From: a phage
Strand: one strand, 5' to 3'
Sequence record: PZ334583.1
DNA length: 45,069 nt
Below, piece by piece: positions 5,654 to 14,181 of this stretch. Within the stretch, counting starts at the first letter, position 1; every line of letters starts with the position of its first letter. The notes under the pieces were generated by a model. That model saw only the letters and a program-made list of their open reading frames with translations, was not told the DNA's origin and made no database searches. The translations under genes and the position numbers were made by a program.

Positions 5654-7837
5654 ATGCTACAAAGATTAGGGGCAATGTTTGTTCGGTATAAAAATAAAGT
5701 AGGTAATGCTATCGAGCGTACACTACAAAGTAAATTACAGGATGTAGTCAGTGTAAAGGACTATGGCGCCATTGGTGATGGGGTATATCGTTCACTTGGT
5801 GATAAATTTACCACGTTAAGTATCGCACAAGTAGTATACCCACATGCTGAAAGTTTAACTCAATCGCAAGATTGGGCGGCTATTCAGGCTGCACTTAATT
5901 CTCACTCAAAAGTGTACATTCCAGCAGGTAGATACATGCTATCTGATACCATTGAGATGAGCGGAGGTCAAACTCTGCAAGGTGACGGTATTGACTCTTG
6001 GGTTGCAGGTTATGCTGGGTTTGTACAAGATAGGCAAGGCACTCACCTTATAATGGTGGGAGATGGCAATAAGAAGTATACATTAGATCATGTATCTAAC
6101 TTCGATGTAGAAGGTGGTGTCATAGACAACCCAGCTAAGAGTGATTCTTATACTGCCACTGCACCTTCCCCTAATTACTCATTTACTAACTTCACTAATG
6201 CTAACGCCTCTGGTGCACAACGTGCTACATTGAAACCTTTCAGCGTAGCATTACGTTGCACAGGTCACGGTGGTGTTTACCTTCGTGACTTCCGTATTGT
6301 GCCTAATCACAGAGGGCAAGAAGGTTATAAGGATGAGTTGTCAACTGCATTAGGGGACGCATGGGATGTAGGTATTTGGCTGGAGAATACATCTGACTCA
6401 GTGTTATCTTCTGTGCAAGCAGTAGGTTACTGGCGCATTGCAGGTGTTATGAAGACTTGTATACCACAAGATGGTTCCTTTGTTGGTGGAGAGCGTGATA
6501 GGATATACAATTGCACATTACAAGGTTATCGTGGCTTCTTAGCACGTTCGCATGATACTTACCAAGTAGAAGAAGTATCAGGTAACACTGTATCGATTAA
6601 GTGGTCTGCATCTCACACTTTCGAACCTTCTGGTAAAGTTCGTATCCAAGGGAAAGACCGTAGTTATACTAGCCTGTCTGTATCTGGTGACAAATTAGTT
6701 TTCACTGGTATTGACGATGTATCAGATATTAATACCAAGAGCTATGTGAGAGTTTCAGGGTCTTCATTCGGAATGTCTGCTACTCAACTAAATAACACAT
6801 ACATCGCTGCATTAAACCATCATGCTCGCTTGCCAGCGACCTCTAATCTTTTAGATAATAGGTTTTCTACTTCGGCAGCTTGCTATGAAGTTGCAGGTGA
6901 ACCAATTCGTGCCATAAAATTATCTAACTGTACTGTCATTACTTGGGATGACATCTTAGGTATGACTGGTGGTATTAGGGACTTCCAGACGACAGATACT
7001 TACTTCGAGTCTCAGCCTTTCCGTACTTCTGTGCAAGGCTTGGCAAGCACCACACAACCTGCTGGTTCTCGCATGATTGCACTTCGTGGACGTCAAGGTT
7101 CTAAAACTACAGGCTATCAAGCTATCGGTTGTACTTATGGGCCGGGTGTAGACCTAAGCCCTCGTTATGAAAGCGATGTATCTCGTTACACAACTTCCGG
7201 TGGTATGTTCAATCCAAGAGAAGATTTGAACACAACTAAGCAGTTACCAATGAGGCAAGACGCTACTGAGCTATCTTCTACTTCTGGCTTATTCCTTACA
7301 CATGCTGTAGGTGGGAAGGCCTATGTTGGCGCTACCTCTGGTGATGCAACGCTTCAATCTAGAACTGGATCATTGAATATCCAATCAGGACTTCGTGTAC
7401 GCATTGGTGGCACTGATGGTAGTGGTTGGTATATTGCTGACAGTGCTAAGTTGACACCTACTGCTGACAATGCAAGGGCTTGTGGACAACCTAATGGACG
7501 ATGGACTGTTGTCTATGCTGTTAATGGTACAATCCAGACTTCTGATGGTAGATTCAAGGAAATCCTTGAGATTGAACAGGCAGAACTTGATGCTGGTCTT
7601 GAATTATCAGCAAACCTAATTAAGTATCGGTGGAATGGGGAAGATAAAATTCACTTTGGTTGCATAGCACAAGAAGTGATGTTAATCCTGGAGAAACATG
7701 GCCTAAACCCATTACAATATGATATGGTTCAGTATGATGAGGAGGCAGACATCTTTGGGGTAAACTATGCTGAACTCAACAGCTTCTGTATTGCAGCATT
7801 ATCGAGGAAGTTAAATGCCATTAATCAGATCAGTTAA
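5654..7837 (+). CDS. Tailspike 2: pectate-lyase-like beta-helix with C-terminal intramolecular chaperone (peptidase S74) domain
   Basis: 727 aa; RBS AAAGGAGG; VKDYGAIGDG motif (pectate_lyase_3-type beta-helix N-cap); C-terminus TSDGRFKE...IHFGCIAQ...GVNYAEL is the S74 chaperone. Confidence 0.9.
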   Translation: MLQRLGAMFVRYKNKVGNAIERTLQSKLQDVVSVKDYGAIGDGVYRSLGDKFTTLSIAQVVYPHAESLTQSQDWAAIQAALNSHSKVYIPAGRYMLSDTIEMSGGQTLQGDGIDSWVAGYAGFVQDRQGTHLIMVGDGNKKYTLDHVSNFDVEGGVIDNPAKSDSYTATAPSPNYSFTNFTNANASGAQRATLKPFSVALRCTGHGGVYLRDFRIVPNHRGQEGYKDELSTALGDAWDVGIWLENTSDSVLSSVQAVGYWRIAGVMKTCIPQDGSFVGGERDRIYNCTLQGYRGFLARSHDTYQVEEVSGNTVSIKWSASHTFEPSGKVRIQGKDRSYTSLSVSGDKLVFTGIDDVSDINTKSYVRVSGSSFGMSATQLNNTYIAALNHHARLPATSNLLDNRFSTSAACYEVAGEPIRAIKLSNCTVITWDDILGMTGGIRDFQTTDTYFESQPFRTSVQGLASTTQPAGSRMIALRGRQGSKTTGYQAIGCTYGPGVDLSPRYESDVSRYTTSGGMFNPREDLNTTKQLPMRQDATELSSTSGLFLTHAVGGKAYVGATSGDATLQSRTGSLNIQSGLRVRIGGTDGSGWYIADSAKLTPTADNARACGQPNGRWTVVYAVNGTIQTSDGRFKEILEIEQAELDAGLELSANLIKYRWNGEDKIHFGCIAQEVMLILEKHGLNPLQYDMVQYDEEADIFGVNYAELNSFCIAALSRKLNAINQIS

Positions 7838-7964
7838 GCAAAGTGCTGTACGCCAGAACACAGAAGAACCTATTCAATCAGGACGTAACCCTAAGCAGGC
7901 TTATGCCATTGCCAAGGATGTACAACGTCGTGCCATGAAGAAACCTTCTGCATCTTCTGCGTAA
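7815..7964 (+). CDS. Small basic ORF (49 aa) overlapping the tailspike 2 stop
   Basis: ATG 7815 with RBS GAGGAAG 7803..7809; MPLIRSVKQSAVRQNTEEPIQSGRNPKQAYAIAKDVQRRAMKKPSASSA; last ORF before the terminal non-coding region. Confidence 0.35.
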   Translation: MPLIRSVKQSAVRQNTEEPIQSGRNPKQAYAIAKDVQRRAMKKPSASSA

Positions 7965-7976
7965 GCAGGTTAATAT

Positions 7977-8020
7977 CTTAGTGTACACAAGGGCAGACCT
8001 AGGTTTGCTCTTAGTGTATT
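7977..8020. repeat. Right-flank array of CTTAGTG heptamer repeats (SRR-like)
   Basis: cttagtgtacacaagg...ctcttagtgtatttac; same heptamer family as the 8320..8920 array. Confidence 0.5.
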
Positions 8021-8034
8021 TACAATGGAGGTCT

Positions 8035-8050
8035 TATATATATATATATA
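8035..8050. repeat. (TA)8 dinucleotide repeat
   Basis: tatatatatatatata read directly. Confidence 0.9.
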
Positions 8051-8147
8051 CCTATGGAAGCAATAGTAAGTTGCCTATGCTTGTTGATAGGTTTCGTTAT
8101 AGGCTTAATAGTAAATCCTTAGTCCTGTACAAGGGTTAACCAAAGTC

Positions 8148-8162
8148 AAAAAAAAAAAAAAA
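8148..8162. repeat. A15 homopolymer
   Basis: 15 consecutive A read directly, followed by a GC-rich block ctcgccctcgccctcgcc. Confidence 0.9.
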
Positions 8163-8319
8163 TTTGATGTAGGCGTGTGTCAGCTCTCTCGCCCTCGCCC
8201 TCGCCGGGTTGCCCCCATAGGGTGGCCTGAGGGAATCCGTCTTCGACGGGCAGGGCTGATGTGCTCCTTGGATAGTACAAGGGAGGCGGAGGGAACGCCT
8301 AGGGAGGCCTAGGAATGGC

Positions 8320-8920
8320 TTAGTGGTGGACAAGGTGATTGCCTTAGTGAAGCCTCTTAGTGCATTCCTGAGGCCATTCAGGGCGTTTATGAGGTATTGA
8401 CAAGATGGAGGGGGGCGTGGGCTATCTGTTCGTTTCGTTCACTCCGCTTGCGCTACGTTCACTCGCTCACGTGTACCTTAGGCTATTCCTTTATGGATAG
8501 CTTAGGTTATAGCTTAGTGGCCTACCTTAGTTATAACCTTAGTGCATAGCTTAGTATCAGCTTAGTAGTGTACCTTAGTAAGTCTTAGTGTCTTCTCTTA
8601 GTGATTGCACATGCAAGCATGTAAGATGCCATTAGGTCGCGGTCGGTAGACCGCTAAAGAAGGAGAATAGTAATAAGATGCAGTAGGAGGAACACCAGAA
8701 GCCTAGCCAACCTAAGCTATCCTAGCTCTATATCTATTGCTTTTCCTTAGTCTAACACGTTAGACAACCTATCTTTTTCTTAGTGATGGTAACTTAGTGT
8801 TGACAAGATAATCTTAGTGTAATACTATGCATCACGTAGGCGGTGCTGAGGCACCTAGTAGCCAGCTAGTAAGGCATACGAAGAGACTAGCGCTTACATT
8901 GCTCTTTAACAATTTGCTTA
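8320..8920. repeat. Left-flank array of about 20 dispersed CTTAGTG / AGCTTAGT heptamer repeats (SRL-like), interspersed with host-type promoters
   Basis: ggcttagtgg, gccttagtga, cctcttagtg, tagcttaggttatagcttagtggcctaccttagttataaccttagtgcatagcttagtatcagcttagtagtgtaccttagtaagtcttagtgtcttctcttagtg, and further copies at 8780..8920. Confidence 0.7.
8800..8828 (+). promoter_or_regulatory. Candidate host sigma70 early promoter
   Basis: TTGACA (8800..8805), 17-nt spacer, TACTAT (8823..8828); sits in the early leader as the T7 A promoters do. Confidence 0.4.
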
Positions 8921-8971
8921 GTGTAACCTATGTATGCCGTGGTTAACTACTTATTGAATGAGGTATTAACT

Positions 8972-9151
8972 ATGACATTAAACAACCGTGAACTGTCCGT
9001 TATCTTCACTCTGTTGTGCTACATGATTCGTAACAACGAATTACTTACAGACGATGAGTTAGCCTTGTATCACCGCTTTCTTAACGAAGGTTGGACCGAT
9101 ACAGTTAATCAATACCGTAACATGATAGATGAGTTGAGGGAGGGTAAATAA
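8972..9151 (+). CDS. Early hypothetical protein (59 aa)
   Basis: ATG 8972 with GAGG 8 nt upstream; ORF-track frame 8930..9151. Confidence 0.5.
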   Translation: MTLNNRELSVIFTLLCYMIRNNELLTDDELALYHRFLNEGWTDTVNQYRNMIDELREGK

Positions 9152-9375
9152 TGTATCAACATGAGGTATTCTTTGAATCAGCTAGCGAAGCTATTCGCTT
9201 CCGTGATGATATGATGCAAGCTGGCGTAGGTGTTGATGTGTATCACTATTTGATAGATTACGACACTGAATATCACCGAGTTACCTTAGTGACTGAGTAT
9301 GATAACCAAGTCATCACTGAGTACTTAGGCAGTGAAGATTACGATTACGATGAAGTAATCACGACAAATCTCTAA
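9151..9375 (+). CDS. Early small highly acidic protein (74 aa), possible DNA-mimic-type anti-host factor
   Basis: RBS GGGAGGG; Asp/Glu/Tyr-rich (EYDNQVITEYLGSEDYDYDEV); TAATG overlap with the upstream gene. Confidence 0.6.
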   Translation: MYQHEVFFESASEAIRFRDDMMQAGVGVDVYHYLIDYDTEYHRVTLVTEYDNQVITEYLGSEDYDYDEVITTNL

Positions 9376-9383
9376 ATTAACTG

Positions 9384-9412
9384 TTGACAGCCACGGCATA
9401 CAAGGTTACATT
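9384..9412 (+). promoter_or_regulatory. Candidate host sigma70 early promoter
   Basis: TTGACA (9384..9389), 17-nt spacer, TACATT (9407..9412). Confidence 0.35.
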
Positions 9413-9504
9413 AAGCATCAAGACGGCGACGTCTTTAAACATCCCGCTCTTTAACAATATGGTTTGTGTCTTGATAGGCTAACTAACTAACTAAGGTAAT
9501 TATC

Positions 9505-9615
9505 ATGAAAGGTTTAATTTGTGTAGAACGTATGGTCAATGGTAAAATTGAAATATTACCACTGGAAAACCAATCTAGCTTCAAAGAGTGGTATGGCTGT
9601 TTCTCACTGATTTAA
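9505..9615 (+). CDS. Small early ORF (36 aa)
   Basis: ATG 9505 after a (CTAA)n three-frame stop element and AAGG; MKGLICVERMVNGKIEILPLENQSSFKEWYGCFSLI. Confidence 0.3.
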   Translation: MKGLICVERMVNGKIEILPLENQSSFKEWYGCFSLI

Positions 9616-9766
9616 GGCAAAGGCTGGCACTAGTCAGCCTATCAAGGCGCAAACCAAGCTCTTTAACAATTTGGATGGCAGCTTCTTAGTCTGGATAGGT
9701 TAAACCTAGGGGATTCTCTTGAGTCTCCTATAATGTAACCTAACTAACTAAATGAGGATTAATAAC

Positions 9767-10123
9767 ATGGCTATGTCTAATATGACTTACTCTCAGGTTT
9801 ACAACACCGCTCATGCTGCATTAGTTGAACGTATCTGGAATGATGCTATTGATTGTATTGATAACGCACATGATGCAATCCATGATGCGGCGGATAGTGC
9901 TGTACCAATCTATTATGCTGACATCTTCTCCGTGATGGCGAGTGAAGGAATTGATCATTTCTTCGAAGACTCCGACCTGATGCCAGACACTAAGGATGTA
10001 ACGGTAGTATTGCAAGCCCGTATCTATGAGCAACTCACAATTGATCTATGGGAACGTGTTCAGTATATGATTGTTGAATACATCAACTCCGCCGCATATT
10101 TAGAAGAAAAAGAGGAAGAATAA
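9767..10123 (+). CDS. ocr: Ocr-like DNA-mimic anti-restriction protein (T7 gene 0.3 homolog)
   Basis: MAMSNMTY...[29 protein letters not shown]...[13 protein letters not shown]...[15 protein letters not shown]...EEKEEE closely matches the T7 Ocr sequence as I recall it; acidic; early-region position. Confidence 0.85.
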
Positions 10124-10124
10124 G

Positions 10125-10238
10125 ATGGAAAAGTTATACAACTTTATCTTTTCAGACGGTGTAACCCTGAAGTGTTCCCTACGACTCGCACAAATTCGTG
10201 AGGAAGTACTAGGCACTACATACAAACTATTTAGCTGA
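10125..10238 (+). CDS. Small early ORF (37 aa)
   Basis: ATG 10125 directly after the ocr stop, RBS GAGGAAG; MEKLYNFIFSDGVTLKCSLRLAQIREEVLGTTYKLFS. Confidence 0.35.
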   Translation: MEKLYNFIFSDGVTLKCSLRLAQIREEVLGTTYKLFS

Positions 10239-10251
10239 CACTATAAGAGAA
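10229..10251 (+). promoter_or_regulatory. Variant phage promoter-like sequence (the +1 G is replaced by A)
   Basis: atttagctgacactataagagaa; the -17..-1 region is closer to the SP6 consensus than the main family, but the CTATAG initiation box reads CTATAA. Confidence 0.35.
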
Positions 10252-10314
10252 GGCTTAACAAGGCGTTGCTACGGTAGCGCCTGATTAAACTTTCACTTAC
10301 TAGGAGTTAAGACT

Positions 10315-10542
10315 ATGGATTTAGATAGCATCATTATGGCATTTGCTCTTATTGGCTTAAGCTGGTGCTCCTATCACCTTTACCGTGAGTTCTTATTTGA
10401 TAAAGCTAAACGCAAACTAAGAAAGGAAGGCGGTAATTACCTTTGTGTAAGAGGTGGGCTTGTAGAATACATTGCACCTAACGGCACGGAATGCGCCATT
10501 AGCAAAGATGCATTTATAGAAACGTGGCATTACATCAAGTAA
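10315..10542 (+). CDS. Early small membrane protein (75 aa)
   Basis: RBS AGGAG; N-terminal hydrophobic helix IIMAFALIGLSWCSYHLY. Confidence 0.55.
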   Translation: MDLDSIIMAFALIGLSWCSYHLYREFLFDKAKRKLRKEGGNYLCVRGGLVEYIAPNGTECAISKDAFIETWHYIK

Positions 10543-10605
10543 CTAGCCTATAGCCTACCTGAGTGGGCTATGTGATATTTACTTACACTATATAAGGTGA
10601 CTATT

Positions 10606-11490
10606 ATGACTACTGAAAACATCCTCCTGTCTGTCCGTGAAGCTGCAACCGCTGAGATTAAGCAGCATTTGGATAATATCGGCACTTCTTACATCAAAGT
10701 TGGCGCTTGTCTGAATGAATTACGCGGTGATTTCGAAGGTCAAAAAGACTTTTTAGCTTATGTAGAATCAGAGTTCGGCATCAAGAAAGCACAATGCTAC
10801 AAGCTGATGAGTGTAGCCCGTGTCTTTGAAGGAGACGAACGCTTTAAAGGTGTGGCTATGCGTGTAATGCTGGCGCTTGTTCCTTTCGCTGATGAAAATA
10901 TAATCATGGAGAAGGCAGCAGAACTCGCCGCAGATGGCAAGCTGGACACTAACGCCGTAAACGCCCTGATTGATCCTAAGAAAGAGACAAAGGCCGAGAT
11001 GGTACAATCTAAGGCTGAGGCGGTAAAACCGCAGGAGAACGCGACTGAGTCCGCAGAATTACAGGAAATGCAAGCGCCGCAGGTAGTGCCACCCGCGAGC
11101 GAGCAGGAGGCCGACGAATCAGCACCTTGGGAAGAGGAAAGCAAGCCGGAAGCGCCTAAGGCCGCGCCACTGGATAACACGGCTAACACCGAGAGTGCCG
11201 CTATTGCTGGCCTTCTGGCACAAATTAAAGCACTGACCGAGCAATTACAGGCAGCTAATGACCGCATTGCCTCCTTAAGCAGCGCACGCGAAAGCAAGAA
11301 AGCAGCCGCGCCTATGCTGCCGCAATTCAAATCTTCCTGCTTCTATGCTCGCTTAGGTTTAAGCGCTGAGGAGGCAACGAAGAAAACAGCAGTTAACAAG
11401 GCACGCCGCGAACTGGTTAAGCTAGGCTACGGCGAAGGCCATGAAGCATGGCCCTTAATCTCTGAGGCAGTAGAAGAATTAACTAAGTAA
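10606..11490 (+). CDS. Early protein (294 aa): N-terminal helical domain, acidic Ala/Pro/Glu-rich linker, basic C-terminal region
   Basis: ATG 10606 with AAGG RBS; low-complexity centre (PQVVPPASEQEADESAPWEEESKPEAPKAAP); immediately upstream of the RNAP gene. Confidence 0.7.
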   Translation: MTTENILLSVREAATAEIKQHLDNIGTSYIKVGACLNELRGDFEGQKDFLAYVESEFGIKKAQCYKLMSVARVFEGDERFKGVAMRVMLALVPFADENIIMEKAAELAADGKLDTNAVNALIDPKKETKAEMVQSKAEAVKPQENATESAELQEMQAPQVVPPASEQEADESAPWEEESKPEAPKAAPLDNTANTESAAIAGLLAQIKALTEQLQAANDRIASLSSARESKKAAAPMLPQFKSSCFYARLGLSAEEATKKTAVNKARRELVKLGYGEGHEAWPLISEAVEELTK

Positions 11491-11553
11491 CCTTATCGGT
11501 GGCATCTTCTTAGTTGTCACCTATTAAGGTTTCTTTCACTAGGAGTAAACAAG

Positions 11554-14181
11554 ATGCAAGACCTACACGCTATTCAACTTCAACTTGAAGAAGAAATGTT
11601 TAACGGCGGTATCCGTCGCTTTGAAGCGGACCAACAACGCCAGATTGCATCCGGTAATGAATCAGACACGGCATGGAATCGCCGCTTATTATCCGAGTTA
11701 ATCGCGCCAATGGCTGAAGGTATTCAGGCTTATAAGGAAGAGTACGAAGGCAAGCGCGGTCGTGCACCACGTGCATTGGCTTTCATTAACTGCGTAGAAA
11801 ATGAAGTGGCAGCGTATATCACGATGAAGATCGTAATGGATATGCTTAACACTGATGTAACCTTGCAAGCTATCGCTATGAATGTAGCTGACCGCATCGA
11901 AGACCAAGTGCGCTTCAGTAAACTAGAAGGCCATGCAGCTAAATATTTTGAGAAGGTCAAGAAGTCACTTAAGGCAAGTAAGACTAAATCATATCGCCAT
12001 GCGCACAACGTAGCGGTCGTGGCTGAGAAGTCAGTAGCTGACCGTGACGCTGATTTCTCTCGCTGGGAAGCGTGGCCTAAAGATACCTTGCTACAAATTG
12101 GTATGACCTTGCTAGAAATACTGGAAAATAGTGTATTCTTCAACAGGCAGCCTGTTTTCATCCGCACCTTGCGTACTAATGGCGGCAAACACGGTGTTTA
12201 CTACTTACAGACTAGTGAACACGTTGGCGAGTGGATAACCGCCTTCAAAGAGCACGTAGCGCAACTAAGCCCTGCATATGCACCTTGCGTTATTCCTCCG
12301 CGTCCGTGGGTTTCACCTTTCAACGGTGGGTTTCATACTGAGAAAGTAGCAAGTCGTATCCGCCTTGTTAAAGGCAACCGTGAGCACGTCCGTAAGTTAA
12401 CTAAAAAGCAAATGCCAGCGGTCTATAAGGCTGTTAACGCCTTACAAGCTACTAAGTGGCAGGTTAACAAGGAAGTATTGCAGGTAGTAGAAGATGTTAT
12501 TCGTCTAGACCTCGGTTATGGTGTACCTTCCTTTAAGCCGCTCATTGACCGCGAGAACAAACCAGCTAACCCTGTTCCTCTTGAGTTCCAACACCTGCGA
12601 GGCCGTGAACTGAAAGAAATGCTTACGCCGGAACAATGGCAAGCCTTTATCAACTGGAAAGGTGAATGTACTAAGCTGTACACCGCTGAAACTAAGCGCG
12701 GAAGCAAATCGGCGGCAACCGTTCGCATGGTTGGTCAGGCCCGTAAATATAGCCAGTTCGACGCAATCTACTTCGTGTATGCACTGGACAGCCGCAGCCG
12801 CGTCTACGCGCAATCTAGCACACTCTCACCGCAATCAAATGACTTGGGCAAGGCATTGCTCCGTTTTACCGAAGGGCAGCGTCTTGATAGCGCTGAGGCG
12901 CTTAAGTGGTTTTTGGTGAACGGGGCGAATAACTGGGGTTGGGATAAGAAAACTTTTGACGTGCGCACCGCTAACGTGCTGGATAGCGAATTTCAAGACA
13001 TGTGCCGCGACATTGCAGCCGATCCGCTGACCTTCACTCAATGGGTAAATGCTGATTCCCCTTACGGCTTCCTTGCATGGTGCTTTGAATATGCGCGTTA
13101 TCTGGATGCACTGGATGAAGGCACGCAAGACCAATTCATGACGCACCTACCCGTCCATCAAGACGGTAGTTGCTCTGGTATCCAGCACTATAGCGCGATG
13201 TTACGCGATGAAGTAGGTGCGAAAGCAGTAAACCTTAAGCCTTCTGACTCCCCTCAAGATATTTATGGCGCGGTTGCGCAGGTTGTTATCCAGAAGAATT
13301 ACGCCTACATGAATGCAGACGATGCAGAGACTTTCACATCTGGAAGCGTCACACTTACAGGTGCAGAACTGCGTAGCATGGCTAGTGCGTGGGATATGAT
13401 AGGAATCACTCGCGGCCTGACCAAAAAGCCCGTAATGACACTACCTTATGGCAGCACACGTCTAACCTGCCGTGAGTCAGTGATTGATTATATCGTTGAT
13501 TTAGAAGAAAAAGAGGCCCAACGGGCTATTGCGGAAGGGCGTACCGCCAATCCTGTACACCCTTTTGATAATGACCGTAAGGACAGCCTGACACCTAGCG
13601 CAGCTTATAACTATATGACAGCTTTAATCTGGCCTTCTATTTCGGAAGTGGTTAAAGCTCCTATAGTGGCAATGAAAATGATTCGTCAGCTTGCACGTTT
13701 CGCAGCTAAAAGGAATGAAGGCTTAGAGTACACCTTGCCTACTGGCTTCATCTTGCAACAAAAGATAATGGCGACAGATATGCTCCGCGTATCTACTTGC
13801 TTGATGGGCGAAATCAAGATGAGTCTACAGATTGAAACGGACGTAGTGGATGAAACGGCTATGATGGGCGCTGCTGCCCCTAACTTTGTGCACGGTCATG
13901 ATGCCAGTCACCTTATCTTAACGGTCTGCGACCTTGTTGATAAAGGGATTACATCTATCGCAGTAATTCATGATTCTTTTGGCACTCATGCAGGTCGTAC
14001 CGCAGACCTACGTGATAGTCTAAGGGCAGAAATGGTGAAGATGTATCAAGGCCATAACGCTCTGCAAAGCCTGTTAGATGAGCATGAAGAACGCTGGTTA
14101 GTAGACACCGGAATCCAAGTGCCAGAGCAAGGAGAGTTTGACCTTAACGAAATCTTAGTATCTGACTATTGCTTCGCATAA
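11554..14181 (+). CDS. Single-subunit DNA-dependent RNA polymerase (SP6/T7 family)
   Basis: 875 aa; [26 protein letters not shown]... and the catalytic C-terminus ...HDSFGTHA... recognised as SP6-type RNAP; RBS AGGAG. Confidence 0.97.

Follow-up and report, generated by a model that had tools for sequence, protein, structure and literature searches.

Does the gene that stands directly before the RNA polymerase gene of an SP6-like phage belong to the accessory equipment of the early region, or does it serve the core of the phage programme? The question is raised by positions 8972 to 11490 of a phage DNA of 45,069 nucleotides (sequence record PZ334583.1; this whole stretch is hereafter called the window), where a run of small open reading frames (ORFs) ends in the gene for a 294-aa protein, gp6, followed by the gene for a single-subunit RNA polymerase (RNAP). 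A first-pass annotation of the window, made from sequence alone, had described the interval as an early anti-host module and had held that none of the products besides the DNA mimic Ocr can be assigned a function from sequence. Our best explanation of the whole, to which we give a probability of about one half, combines the identity of the interval as an early operon with a role of gp6 as a dimeric core factor in the hand-over from host to phage.

The setting of the interval is well documented. Phage EEc4 was the best match in a megablast search with positions 8800-11600 (97.6% identity over 100% of the query; 96 phage records). Judging from such alignments, the source genome is a circularly permuted, complete coliphage genome of the K1-5/K1E type (Vectrevirus, Molineuxvirinae), and 8972-11490 is its left-end early operon, comprising genes 1-6. 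The records of K1-5, K1E and SP6 number these ORFs genes 1-6 and the RNAP gene 7, so that the catalogue of genes offered by the first-pass annotation is mostly ordinary; all of its ORFs were found again at their positions on the plus strand. Annotated relatives list every ORF of the block except Ocr as "hypothetical protein".

Full-length relatives of gp6 were detected by tblastn in 214 phage records, with hosts in Escherichia, Klebsiella, Salmonella, Proteus, Erwinia, Pectobacterium, Vibrio, Pseudomonas, Marinomonas, Shewanella and Edwardsiella. When 1.84 billion cluster representatives were searched exhaustively with HMMER, only 131 clusters at 50% identity emerged, almost all of which share one architecture from end to end; all 112 tested representatives fall in phrog_4571, a family of "unknown function". 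A search of 185,579 bacterial and archaeal genomes, each from a different species, found no relative. In every annotated relative inspected the RNAP gene is next after gp6 on the same strand, and this is also so in 41 of 43 IMG/VR loci, the exceptions being a contig end and a weak partial match; the position before the RNAP gene is fixed across at least two subfamilies. By these sequence comparisons, gp6 is confined to SP6-like phages, where it is a core gene whose synteny is fixed. Its wide conservation and its fixed synteny with RNAP argue for a core gene and against accessory anti-defence cargo. Some of its relatives carry wrong product names, including "endolysin", "andolysin", "late transcription factor VLTF-4" and "periplasmatic protein".

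An AlphaFold2 model of gp6, built on a 51-sequence alignment, shows two confident domains with a disordered stretch between them. The parts of gp6, with the predicted local distance difference test score (pLDDT) where it applies and with the helix-turn-helix abbreviated as HTH, are the following, all on the plus strand:

10606-11490, plus strand: gene 6, encoding the 294-aa core protein gp6 (phrog_4571)
10633-10980, plus strand: gp6 residues 10-125, predicted six-helix DUF3102/ParB-KorB-like HTH domain (pLDDT about 90)
10984-11178, plus strand: gp6 residues 127-191, predicted disordered acidic Ala/Glu/Pro/Gln linker (pLDDT about 30; net charge -10)
11179-11301, plus strand: gp6 residues 192-232, predicted long amphipathic helix of about four heptads (AlphaFold2 model, heptad pattern)
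11311-11487, plus strand: gp6 residues 236-294, PxLPQF motif followed by a predicted J-like domain with helices I-III (pLDDT about 92)
11554-14181, plus strand: gene 7, single-subunit RNAP of 875 aa, the 3' neighbour of gene 6 after a gap of 63 nt

The helical N-terminal domain and the acidic linker that had been read from the translation are both borne out by the model, while the C-terminus, described as basic, is only mildly so (about +1 to +3). In a fold comparison of the predicted model, the N-terminal domain resembles the solved DNA-binding domains of ParB and KorB. It contains a putative recognition helix, KKAQCYKLMSVARVF, and the segment EFGIKKAQCYKLMSVARVF shows the succession of helix, Gly-turn and helix that is seen in the ParB HTH, with K61 invariant; we infer that this segment is an HTH. 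PF11300 (DUF3102) matches 34 of the 112 family representatives (best E 1.5e-7), and UniRef calls one gp6 relative a DUF3102 domain-containing protein. A ParB/Srx CTPase domain was not found by Pfam and NCBIfam scans or in the model, where the HTH domain starts at residue 10. DNA binding by the N-terminal domain is plausible in the light of the predicted fold. The linker is acidic in 99 of 120 family representatives, and 35 of the 120 carry an AP[WF][DE] motif within it (SAPWEE in the window, at about 11125-11142). In one linker the motif is DIPFD, reminiscent of the tip of the C-terminal tail of SSB. Along the long helix, the a/d positions read I-L-I-L-L-A-I-L over about four heptads.

By eye, the C-terminal domain, CFYARLGLSAEEATKKTAVNKARRELVKLGYGEGHEAWPLISEAVEEL, looked like a J-domain without the His-Pro-Asp (HPD) tripeptide, which is essential to J-domain function, and this impression was then tested. 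In the model, helices II and III form an antiparallel hairpin flanked by helix I, and helix IV is absent. Across the family the domain comes in a "GYG" type (49 representatives, that of the window included) and in other types; the GYG-type profile matches the profile of the others with 99.8% probability (E 1.7e-27). Pfam DnaJ (PF00226) recognizes 13 of the 112 family representatives and, at E <=0.05, 28 of 63 isolated non-GYG C-domains, and a few full-length members also match the NCBIfam DnaJ and DjlA models. Two relatives pass the DnaJ gathering threshold (47.2 and 28.2 bits against 27.8); of these, P0246 has a genuine HPD and the other an NPD. When the GYG-type profile was aligned by hhalign with the J-domain of E. 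coli DnaJ, whose sequence was confirmed against PDB entries, helices I, II and III came into register and KYHPDRN stood opposite a gap; the pairwise E is 0.0018, with a low probability because the template is a single sequence. Against PDB sequences, the C-domain profile ranks DnaJ second (E 0.6), and the whole-gp6 profile gave nothing significant; the gp6 sequence itself returned only noise-level matches there.

Helix II of the C-terminal domain keeps its basic residues (KARRELVK). The loop between helices II and III reads LGYGEGHEAW, with G276-E277-G278 at the HPD position, and G274, Y275, G276 and H279 are invariant across the gp6 of enterobacterial, Vibrio and Pseudomonas phages, as is PxLPQF just upstream. 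An HPD occurs in only 1 of 117 family representatives and is absent from gp6 of the window. Profiles and model together indicate that the C-terminal domain is a diverged J-domain in which the invariant GYGxGH loop replaces the catalytic HPD tripeptide. Because the defining HPD is absent, we class it as J-like in the sense of Tim16, not as a J-domain co-chaperone. The four-part architecture of ParB/KorB-like HTH (DUF3102), acidic disordered linker, short coiled coil and J-domain fold is well supported by model and family profiles, and we consider it very probable. The view that nothing can be assigned from sequence was therefore wrong for the 294-aa protein, for which profile and fold comparison give a DUF3102/ParB-KorB-like HTH and a degenerate J-domain.

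With regard to function, we posit that gp6 would act as a dimeric core factor at the hand-over, when transcription and replication pass from host to phage. Through its HTH domain it would be bound to DNA or to a partner resembling DNA. The degenerate J-domain would offer a host partner a docking site or a decoy; this partner would most likely be the DnaK/DnaJ system, and the Hsp70 ATPase would not be stimulated in the usual manner. An adaptor between DNA (or a DNA-bound complex) and a protein partner is suggested by the coiled-coil dimer with the HTH at one end and the J-like domain at the other, and a part in the hand-over by the fixed place of the gene before RNAP and by the host-type and phage-type promoters upstream of it. 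We name DnaK/DnaJ as the candidate partner because of the J-fold, the basic helix II and the occasional intact HPD; docking, sequestration or regulation is preferred over ATPase stimulation because the HPD was lost and replaced in a clade-specific manner. This mechanism, in which a DNA-linked adaptor docks, sequesters or regulates a partner, with DnaK/DnaJ as candidate, is tentative and could well give way to another. A bolder version would make gp6 the first member of an otherwise unrecognized class of host-takeover factors, a DNA-tethered, HPD-less J-domain decoy that blocks or captures DnaK/DnaJ or another partner at the infecting genome, and at the same time an obligatory partner of SP6-type single-subunit RNAPs throughout the group; we consider this combination improbable.

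Several observations weigh against our proposal for gp6. The protein of the window itself matches neither DUF3102 nor DnaJ in Pfam, so that its domain assignments are transitive (via the family) and structural (via the predicted model). The best fold match of the N-terminal domain is Raf1, a protein-binding domain, and its acidic net charge of -4 to -6 would be unusual for a DNA binder. The loop at the HPD position varies by clade (GYGxGH, YTAATN, HYxPExN and HHPD), which argues against canonical Hsp70 activation as the function under conservation. A conserved repeated DNA operator for gp6 was not found, the sole repeated palindrome having the look of an RNA hairpin (see below), and the searchable literature, a Tn-seq preprint included and original genome papers aside, contains no experimental information on gp6 or on the small proteins.

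The hand-over also has a host side, for which the following candidate signals lie upstream of gene 6:

8800-8828, plus strand: sigma-70 promoter-like site TTGACA-17-TACTAT, first early promoter candidate (10/12 consensus matches)
9384-9412, plus strand: sigma-70 promoter-like site TTGACA-17-TACATT, second early promoter candidate (10/12 consensus matches)
8901-8913, plus strand: boxA copy 1, GCTCTTTAACAAT (exact consensus match)
9446-9458, plus strand: boxA copy 2, GCTCTTTAACAAT (exact consensus match)
9658-9670, plus strand: boxA copy 3, GCTCTTTAACAAT (exact consensus match)

The two promoter-like sites are the best sigma-70-like sites of the region, where the total number of such sites is not above that of shuffled sequences, and boxA copies 1 and 2 begin 73 and 34 nt after their -10 hexamers. 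The gamma-proteobacterial boxA consensus is GYTCTTTAANA (PMC5725501). All three exact copies of GCTCTTTAACAAT in the genome lie in the early operon, a number that 0 of 100 shuffles reached. The consensus was counted in 43 related viral loci, those of Vibrio, Pseudomonas and Shewanella phages among them, and stands 91 times on the plus strand and twice on the minus strand. It is present in 38 of the 43; every copy is upstream of gene 6 in 36 of these 38, and the other two also have one copy in the RNAP gene. In the complete genomes of SP6 and Premi, the consensus is confined to the early region. Positions are 656 and 926 in SP6 (locus L015) and 103 and 826 in locus L016, and loci L017-L057 were also covered.

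RNase III-type structures were considered for the GCTCTTTAACAAT contexts and rejected, the folding energies being no better than those of shuffles (z 0.06 to 0.40). Contexts that are not unusually structured are better explained as single-stranded boxA, as expected of a NusB/NusE site. We propose that the host RNAP would start at the two strong sigma-70-like promoters and pass the three boxA sites of ribosomal RNA operon (rrn) type, and that the host Nus antitermination complex would be loaded on it so that gene 7 is reached. The sequence pattern suggests that early transcription in SP6-like phages makes use of the Nus antitermination complex of the host.

How much of the interval is nevertheless accessory cargo has to be judged from the remaining genes, which are as follows:

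8972-9151, plus strand: gene 1, gp1, 59 aa (phrog_9275)
9151-9375, plus strand: gene 2, gp2, acidic Tyr-rich protein of 74 aa (phrog_6403)
9505-9615, plus strand: accessory ORF of 36 aa (matches no PHROG; TAAGGT upstream)
9767-10123, plus strand: gene 3, Ocr DNA mimic, 118 aa (PF08684; phrog_2568)
10125-10238, plus strand: gene 4, gp4 microprotein, 37 aa (phrog_11746)
10315-10542, plus strand: gene 5, gp5, 75 aa, with a probable N-terminal membrane anchor (phrog_21597)

A Shine-Dalgarno-like element (GAGG, AGGAG or AAGGT) lies 7-13 nt 5' of each ORF start, in agreement with the good ribosome-binding sites that had been claimed for the small ORFs, whose coding status rests on cross-phage comparison. 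Pfam, NCBIfam and PHROG scans returned only unannotated PHROGs or noise-level matches for the five small proteins. None of the ORFs matches a kinase or RNAP-inhibitor family, the matches that the first-pass annotation had named as speaking against its view. Ocr is recognized by PF08684 with 137.9 bits (E 1.9e-40, profile positions 1-97 of 101) and belongs to the ocr-like anti-restriction family phrog_2568; the Ocr homologue of phage KMB14 is misnamed "protein kinase". gp1 was found by tblastn in 102 phage records, Klebsiella phages included, and is 69% identical to SP6 gene 1. Alignment favours its start at 8972, with GAGG 9 nt upstream, over an alternative ATG at 8930 that has no Shine-Dalgarno element. 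gp5 occurs in only 32 phage records, all Vectrevirus-like (tblastn), and goes by the same name in K1E. Its hydrophobic N-terminus (mean Kyte-Doolittle hydropathy 1.42 over residues 1-19), followed by KAKRKLRK, makes an N-terminal anchor probable, in line with the earlier reading as a membrane protein.

The acidic gp2 had been singled out as a possible second DNA or protein mimic. Its composition is as described (17 D/E, 3 K/R and 9 Tyr in 74 residues, net charge -14), and it is restricted to Vectrevirus-like phages (65 phage records, 49 protein clusters), with the final 25 residues nearly invariant and a variable N-terminal half. Structure prediction with fold search, which had been proposed for each product, was applied to gp2 and gp6; in addition to the HTH and J-like domains of gp6, it gave a beta-alpha-beta-beta-alpha-beta ferredoxin-like fold for gp2 (AlphaFold2, pLDDT 83). 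The best PDB neighbours of this model in Foldseek are PII/GlnK, CutA, ACT and NikR at E about 1e-3, a generic result, and the 50 best PDB fold matches include no known mimic or anti-defence protein. Pfam, NCBIfam and PDB sequence searches with gp2 gave no match. gp2 is 21% identical to the product of SP6 gene 2 (pairwise E 2e-6 with compositional correction off), which was accepted as a member of the same PHROG; this kinship adds nothing on function. Charge alone thus speaks for a mimic, against a generic fold model and an SP6 orthologue that is not notably acidic.

These data bear on the possibility that the interval is throughout a cassette of inhibitors that act independently in anti-defence or host takeover, with gp2 as a second mimic and gp6 as an accessory inhibitor. 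The presence of Ocr, the charge density of gp2, which is similar to that of Ocr, its variable N-terminal half beside a fixed C-terminus, and the contrast of 65, 38 and 32 phage records for gp2, the 36-aa ORF and gp5 with 214 for gp6 are what one would expect of such a cassette. It accounts less well for gp6, gp4 and gp1, which are kept across genera, or for the fixed synteny of gp6 and RNAP across at least two subfamilies, and its second mimic is at odds with the generic model of gp2 and with an SP6 counterpart that is only modestly negative. We regard this explanation as doubtful for the interval as a whole, although it deserves to be kept in mind. Sequence comparison rather divides the genes into three groups, namely the known anti-restriction gene Ocr, the accessory genes for gp2, the 36-aa ORF and gp5, and the cross-genus genes for gp1, gp4 and gp6. 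The idea of an early anti-host module holds for a left end that is transcribed by the host RNAP and carries Ocr along with 74-, 36- and 75-aa genes that are patchy among close relatives, and it fails for gp1, gp4 and gp6. The patchy distribution of gp2, the 36-aa ORF and gp5 fits the usual accessory host-interaction genes, and the small accessory proteins are most likely single-target inhibitors of the host or of its defences.

The second alternative concerns the mechanism of gp6 and draws on signals of phage transcription that also precede the gene:

10229-10249, plus strand: phage-RNAP promoter-like site ATTTAGCTGACACTATAAGAG with core TTAnnnnACACTATA, before gene 5
10549-10572, plus strand: terminator-like hairpin after gene 5, with a 10-bp stem and a T-rich tail (pattern match only)
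10578-10592, plus strand: second phage-promoter-like core TTTACTTACACTATA, with one mismatch to the core, 14 nt before gene 6

The core TTAnnnnACACTATA, mostly in the form TTACTGGACACTATA, recurs at 14 plus-strand sites with one mismatch allowed, against 1.3 expected on both strands (1900, 3570, 10231, 10578, 14276, 14460, 17074, 17765, 21467, 21930, 23161, 26302, 31634 and 44418). By this recurrence, it is taken to mark the promoters of the phage RNAP. The copies at 10231 and 10578 are sequence variants (TTAGCTG... and TTTACTT...), and SP6 has an equivalent promoter-like site at the end of gene 4. Because phage-RNAP promoter-like sites precede both genes, genes 5 and 6 are probably not early-only. 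Between the 10229 promoter and gene 5, positions 10238-10309 form a palindromic, hairpin-forming stretch with a sub-threshold Rfam miRNA match on both strands, which is probably the 5' leader stem-loop of the phage-promoter transcript; otherwise, Rfam and tRNA scans of 7800-11700 found nothing.

A perfect 16-bp palindrome, GTCTCACATGTGAGAC, occurs in five intergenic copies (14256, 14437, 17146, 23128 and 39820), three of them 5-18 bp upstream of phage promoters. Its SP6 counterpart, GTCTAACATGTTGGAC, is found at 8547, 9383 and 30569 (locus L015) with C-G to A-U and U-A to U-G changes, and the SP6 sites sit in longer stems followed by U-runs. The palindrome was considered as an operator for gp6 and rejected in view of these RNA-type compensatory and G-U changes, the longer stems with U-runs, and its absence from the gp6-bearing Proteus phage Premi. 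Their sequences suggest that GTCTCACATGTGAGAC and GTCTAACATGTTGGAC are not protein operators but conserved RNA hairpins with a CAUG loop, which would serve as terminators or in RNA processing or stability.

If gp6 were a KorB-like regulator, it would bind phage or host operators as a coiled-coil dimer and shut off transcription by the host RNAP or time the early-to-middle switch, with the J-like domain as a structural or oligomerization module. This is the main rival for the mechanism. It agrees with the fold resemblance to the DNA-binding domains of KorB and ParB, with the coiled coil, with the place of gene 6 beside RNAP and downstream of host-type and phage-type promoters, and with the lack of any RNAP-inhibitor or kinase match among the ORFs of the interval. 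As a group, SP6-like phages are not known to encode homologues of T7 gp0.7 and gp2. A regulator of this kind is, however, poorly reconciled with an acidic N-terminal domain, with the lack of a conserved repeated operator, and with a palindrome that behaves as an RNA hairpin. The GYGxGH motif, invariant in Vibrio, Pseudomonas and enterobacterial phages, suggests a specific partner of the C-terminal domain instead. We judge a KorB-like regulator unlikely.

The third alternative is that the tiny ORFs, chiefly the 36-aa one, are chance frames in leader or intergenic RNA. The 36-aa ORF matched nothing in the Pfam, NCBIfam and PHROG searches, is unannotated in EEc4, AAPEc6, K1-5 and others, and sits between two boxA elements. 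It is present in 38 phage records (tblastn; 35 of them Vectrevirus), about a third of the relatives. Enterobacter phage EV136_1, a Kayfunavirus of a different subfamily, carries a homologue in its early region, preceded by a ribosome-binding site of its own (75% identity by tblastn, 73% over 37 aligned codons). The first 14 residues of the two are identical, and the codon differences comprise 11 synonymous and 10 non-synonymous changes, a near-equality that by itself would suit a chance frame. Its TAAGGT Shine-Dalgarno element is correctly spaced, and coding evidence is strong for the 37-aa gp4. gp4 occurs at >=60% identity in 135 phage records, with hosts in Escherichia, Klebsiella, Salmonella, Proteus, Citrobacter and Raoultella. 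Against SP6, Proteus and Klebsiella phages it shows 13-19 synonymous and 6-9 non-synonymous codon differences (17 and 6 for the Proteus phage, 19 and 9 for Klebsiella phage Kp_H01). By this measure, gp4 is a real, strongly constrained microprotein. The homologue with its own ribosome-binding site in another subfamily favours a mobile accessory gene over a chance frame for the 36-aa ORF, and sequence comparison indicates that tiny early genes are exchanged between subfamilies. Chance frames are therefore an improbable account. In EV136_1, a Studiervirinae phage, the homologue occupies positions 851-958, unannotated, just upstream of a SAM hydrolase gene.

Least of all do we expect gp6 to be a genuine J-domain co-chaperone that stimulates DnaK, like Rki of phage RB43 or the polyomavirus T antigens, since fold, sequence register, the basic helix II and the two members with HPD or NPD above the Pfam DnaJ threshold are outweighed by the absence of HPD from gp6 of the window and from 116 of 117 representatives and by the missing helix IV.

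The surroundings of the interval show some further features. From the EEc4 alignment, in which window position 8800 corresponds to EEc4 position 611, the physical left genome end is expected near window position 8190. The DNA that separates the tail-spike end of the genome from the early region is non-coding and contains a (TA)8 run (8035-8050) and an A15 run (8148-8162). Heptamers of the form CTTAGTG or CTTAGTA are densely arrayed at about 8300-8830, 5' of the first early promoter; genomes of the T7 group have arrays of short repeats on either side of the terminal repeat, and the heptamers are probably their counterpart.

Phages of the SP6 and K1-5 type have therapeutic uses and are the source of an RNA polymerase that is standard in the laboratory, and the gene that always precedes that of the polymerase has had no recorded function. 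Reading gp6 as an HTH joined to a degenerate J-domain makes it testable with respect to DNA binding, contact with DnaK/DnaJ and the role of the GYGxGH loop. gp6 also shows that the early region of a T7-type phage is not all accessory anti-defence cargo, and the remaining small proteins are candidates only, without a named target. The conserved boxA suggests that this phage group borrows the rRNA antitermination machinery of its host to reach its own polymerase gene; such a dependency, if true, would be simple and targetable. Neither the domain-level reading of gp6 nor the generality of the boxA sites in these phages is recorded in the searchable literature, nor the former in databases, and the original genome papers may hold earlier remarks on both.

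Compared with known systems, the block differs in nothing substantive from genes 1-6 of K1-5, K1E and SP6 (Molineuxvirinae), gene content and order being the same. For gp6 the identity is 94-97% with gene 6 of K1-5 and K1E and 65% with that of SP6; gp1, gp2, Ocr, gp4 and gp5 are likewise matched, and the 36-aa ORF is an addition of this genome relative to that block. Database records give genes 1-6 no function, the misnomers "endolysin", "VLTF-4" and "protein kinase" aside. In the early operon, GCTCTTTAACA fits GYTCTTTAANA exactly and resembles the rrn boxA/Nus signal in being strand-specific and downstream of promoters. The sites described here differ from rrn boxA in lying in early operons of virulent phages, where no lambda N-like protein is evident and antitermination is suggested by the sequence.

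The gene immediately upstream of T7 gene 1 is gene 0.7, which encodes a protein kinase with a role in host shut-off. gp6 shares only the position with it, having no sequence or fold similarity and no kinase match. In comparison with ParB/Spo0J/Noc and RK2 KorB, gp6 has neither a ParB/Srx CTPase N-terminal domain nor a ParB C-terminal dimerization domain; its HTH domain carries a net acidic charge and resembles the protein-binding alpha-domain of Raf1 to an equal degree. From J-domain proteins (PF00226: DnaJ, CbpA, DjlA) and from the HPD-less Tim16/Pam16, gp6 differs by its invariant GYGxGH, the lack of helix IV, the PxLPQF before the domain, the fusion to an HTH and a coiled coil, and its occurrence in phages only. 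The concept recurs in E. coli CbpA and polyomavirus large T antigen. Although these differ from gp6 in domain order, in their DNA-binding folds and in their intact HPD, and share no homology with it outside the J fold, they too unite a J-type module and DNA association in one polypeptide, as we propose for gp6.

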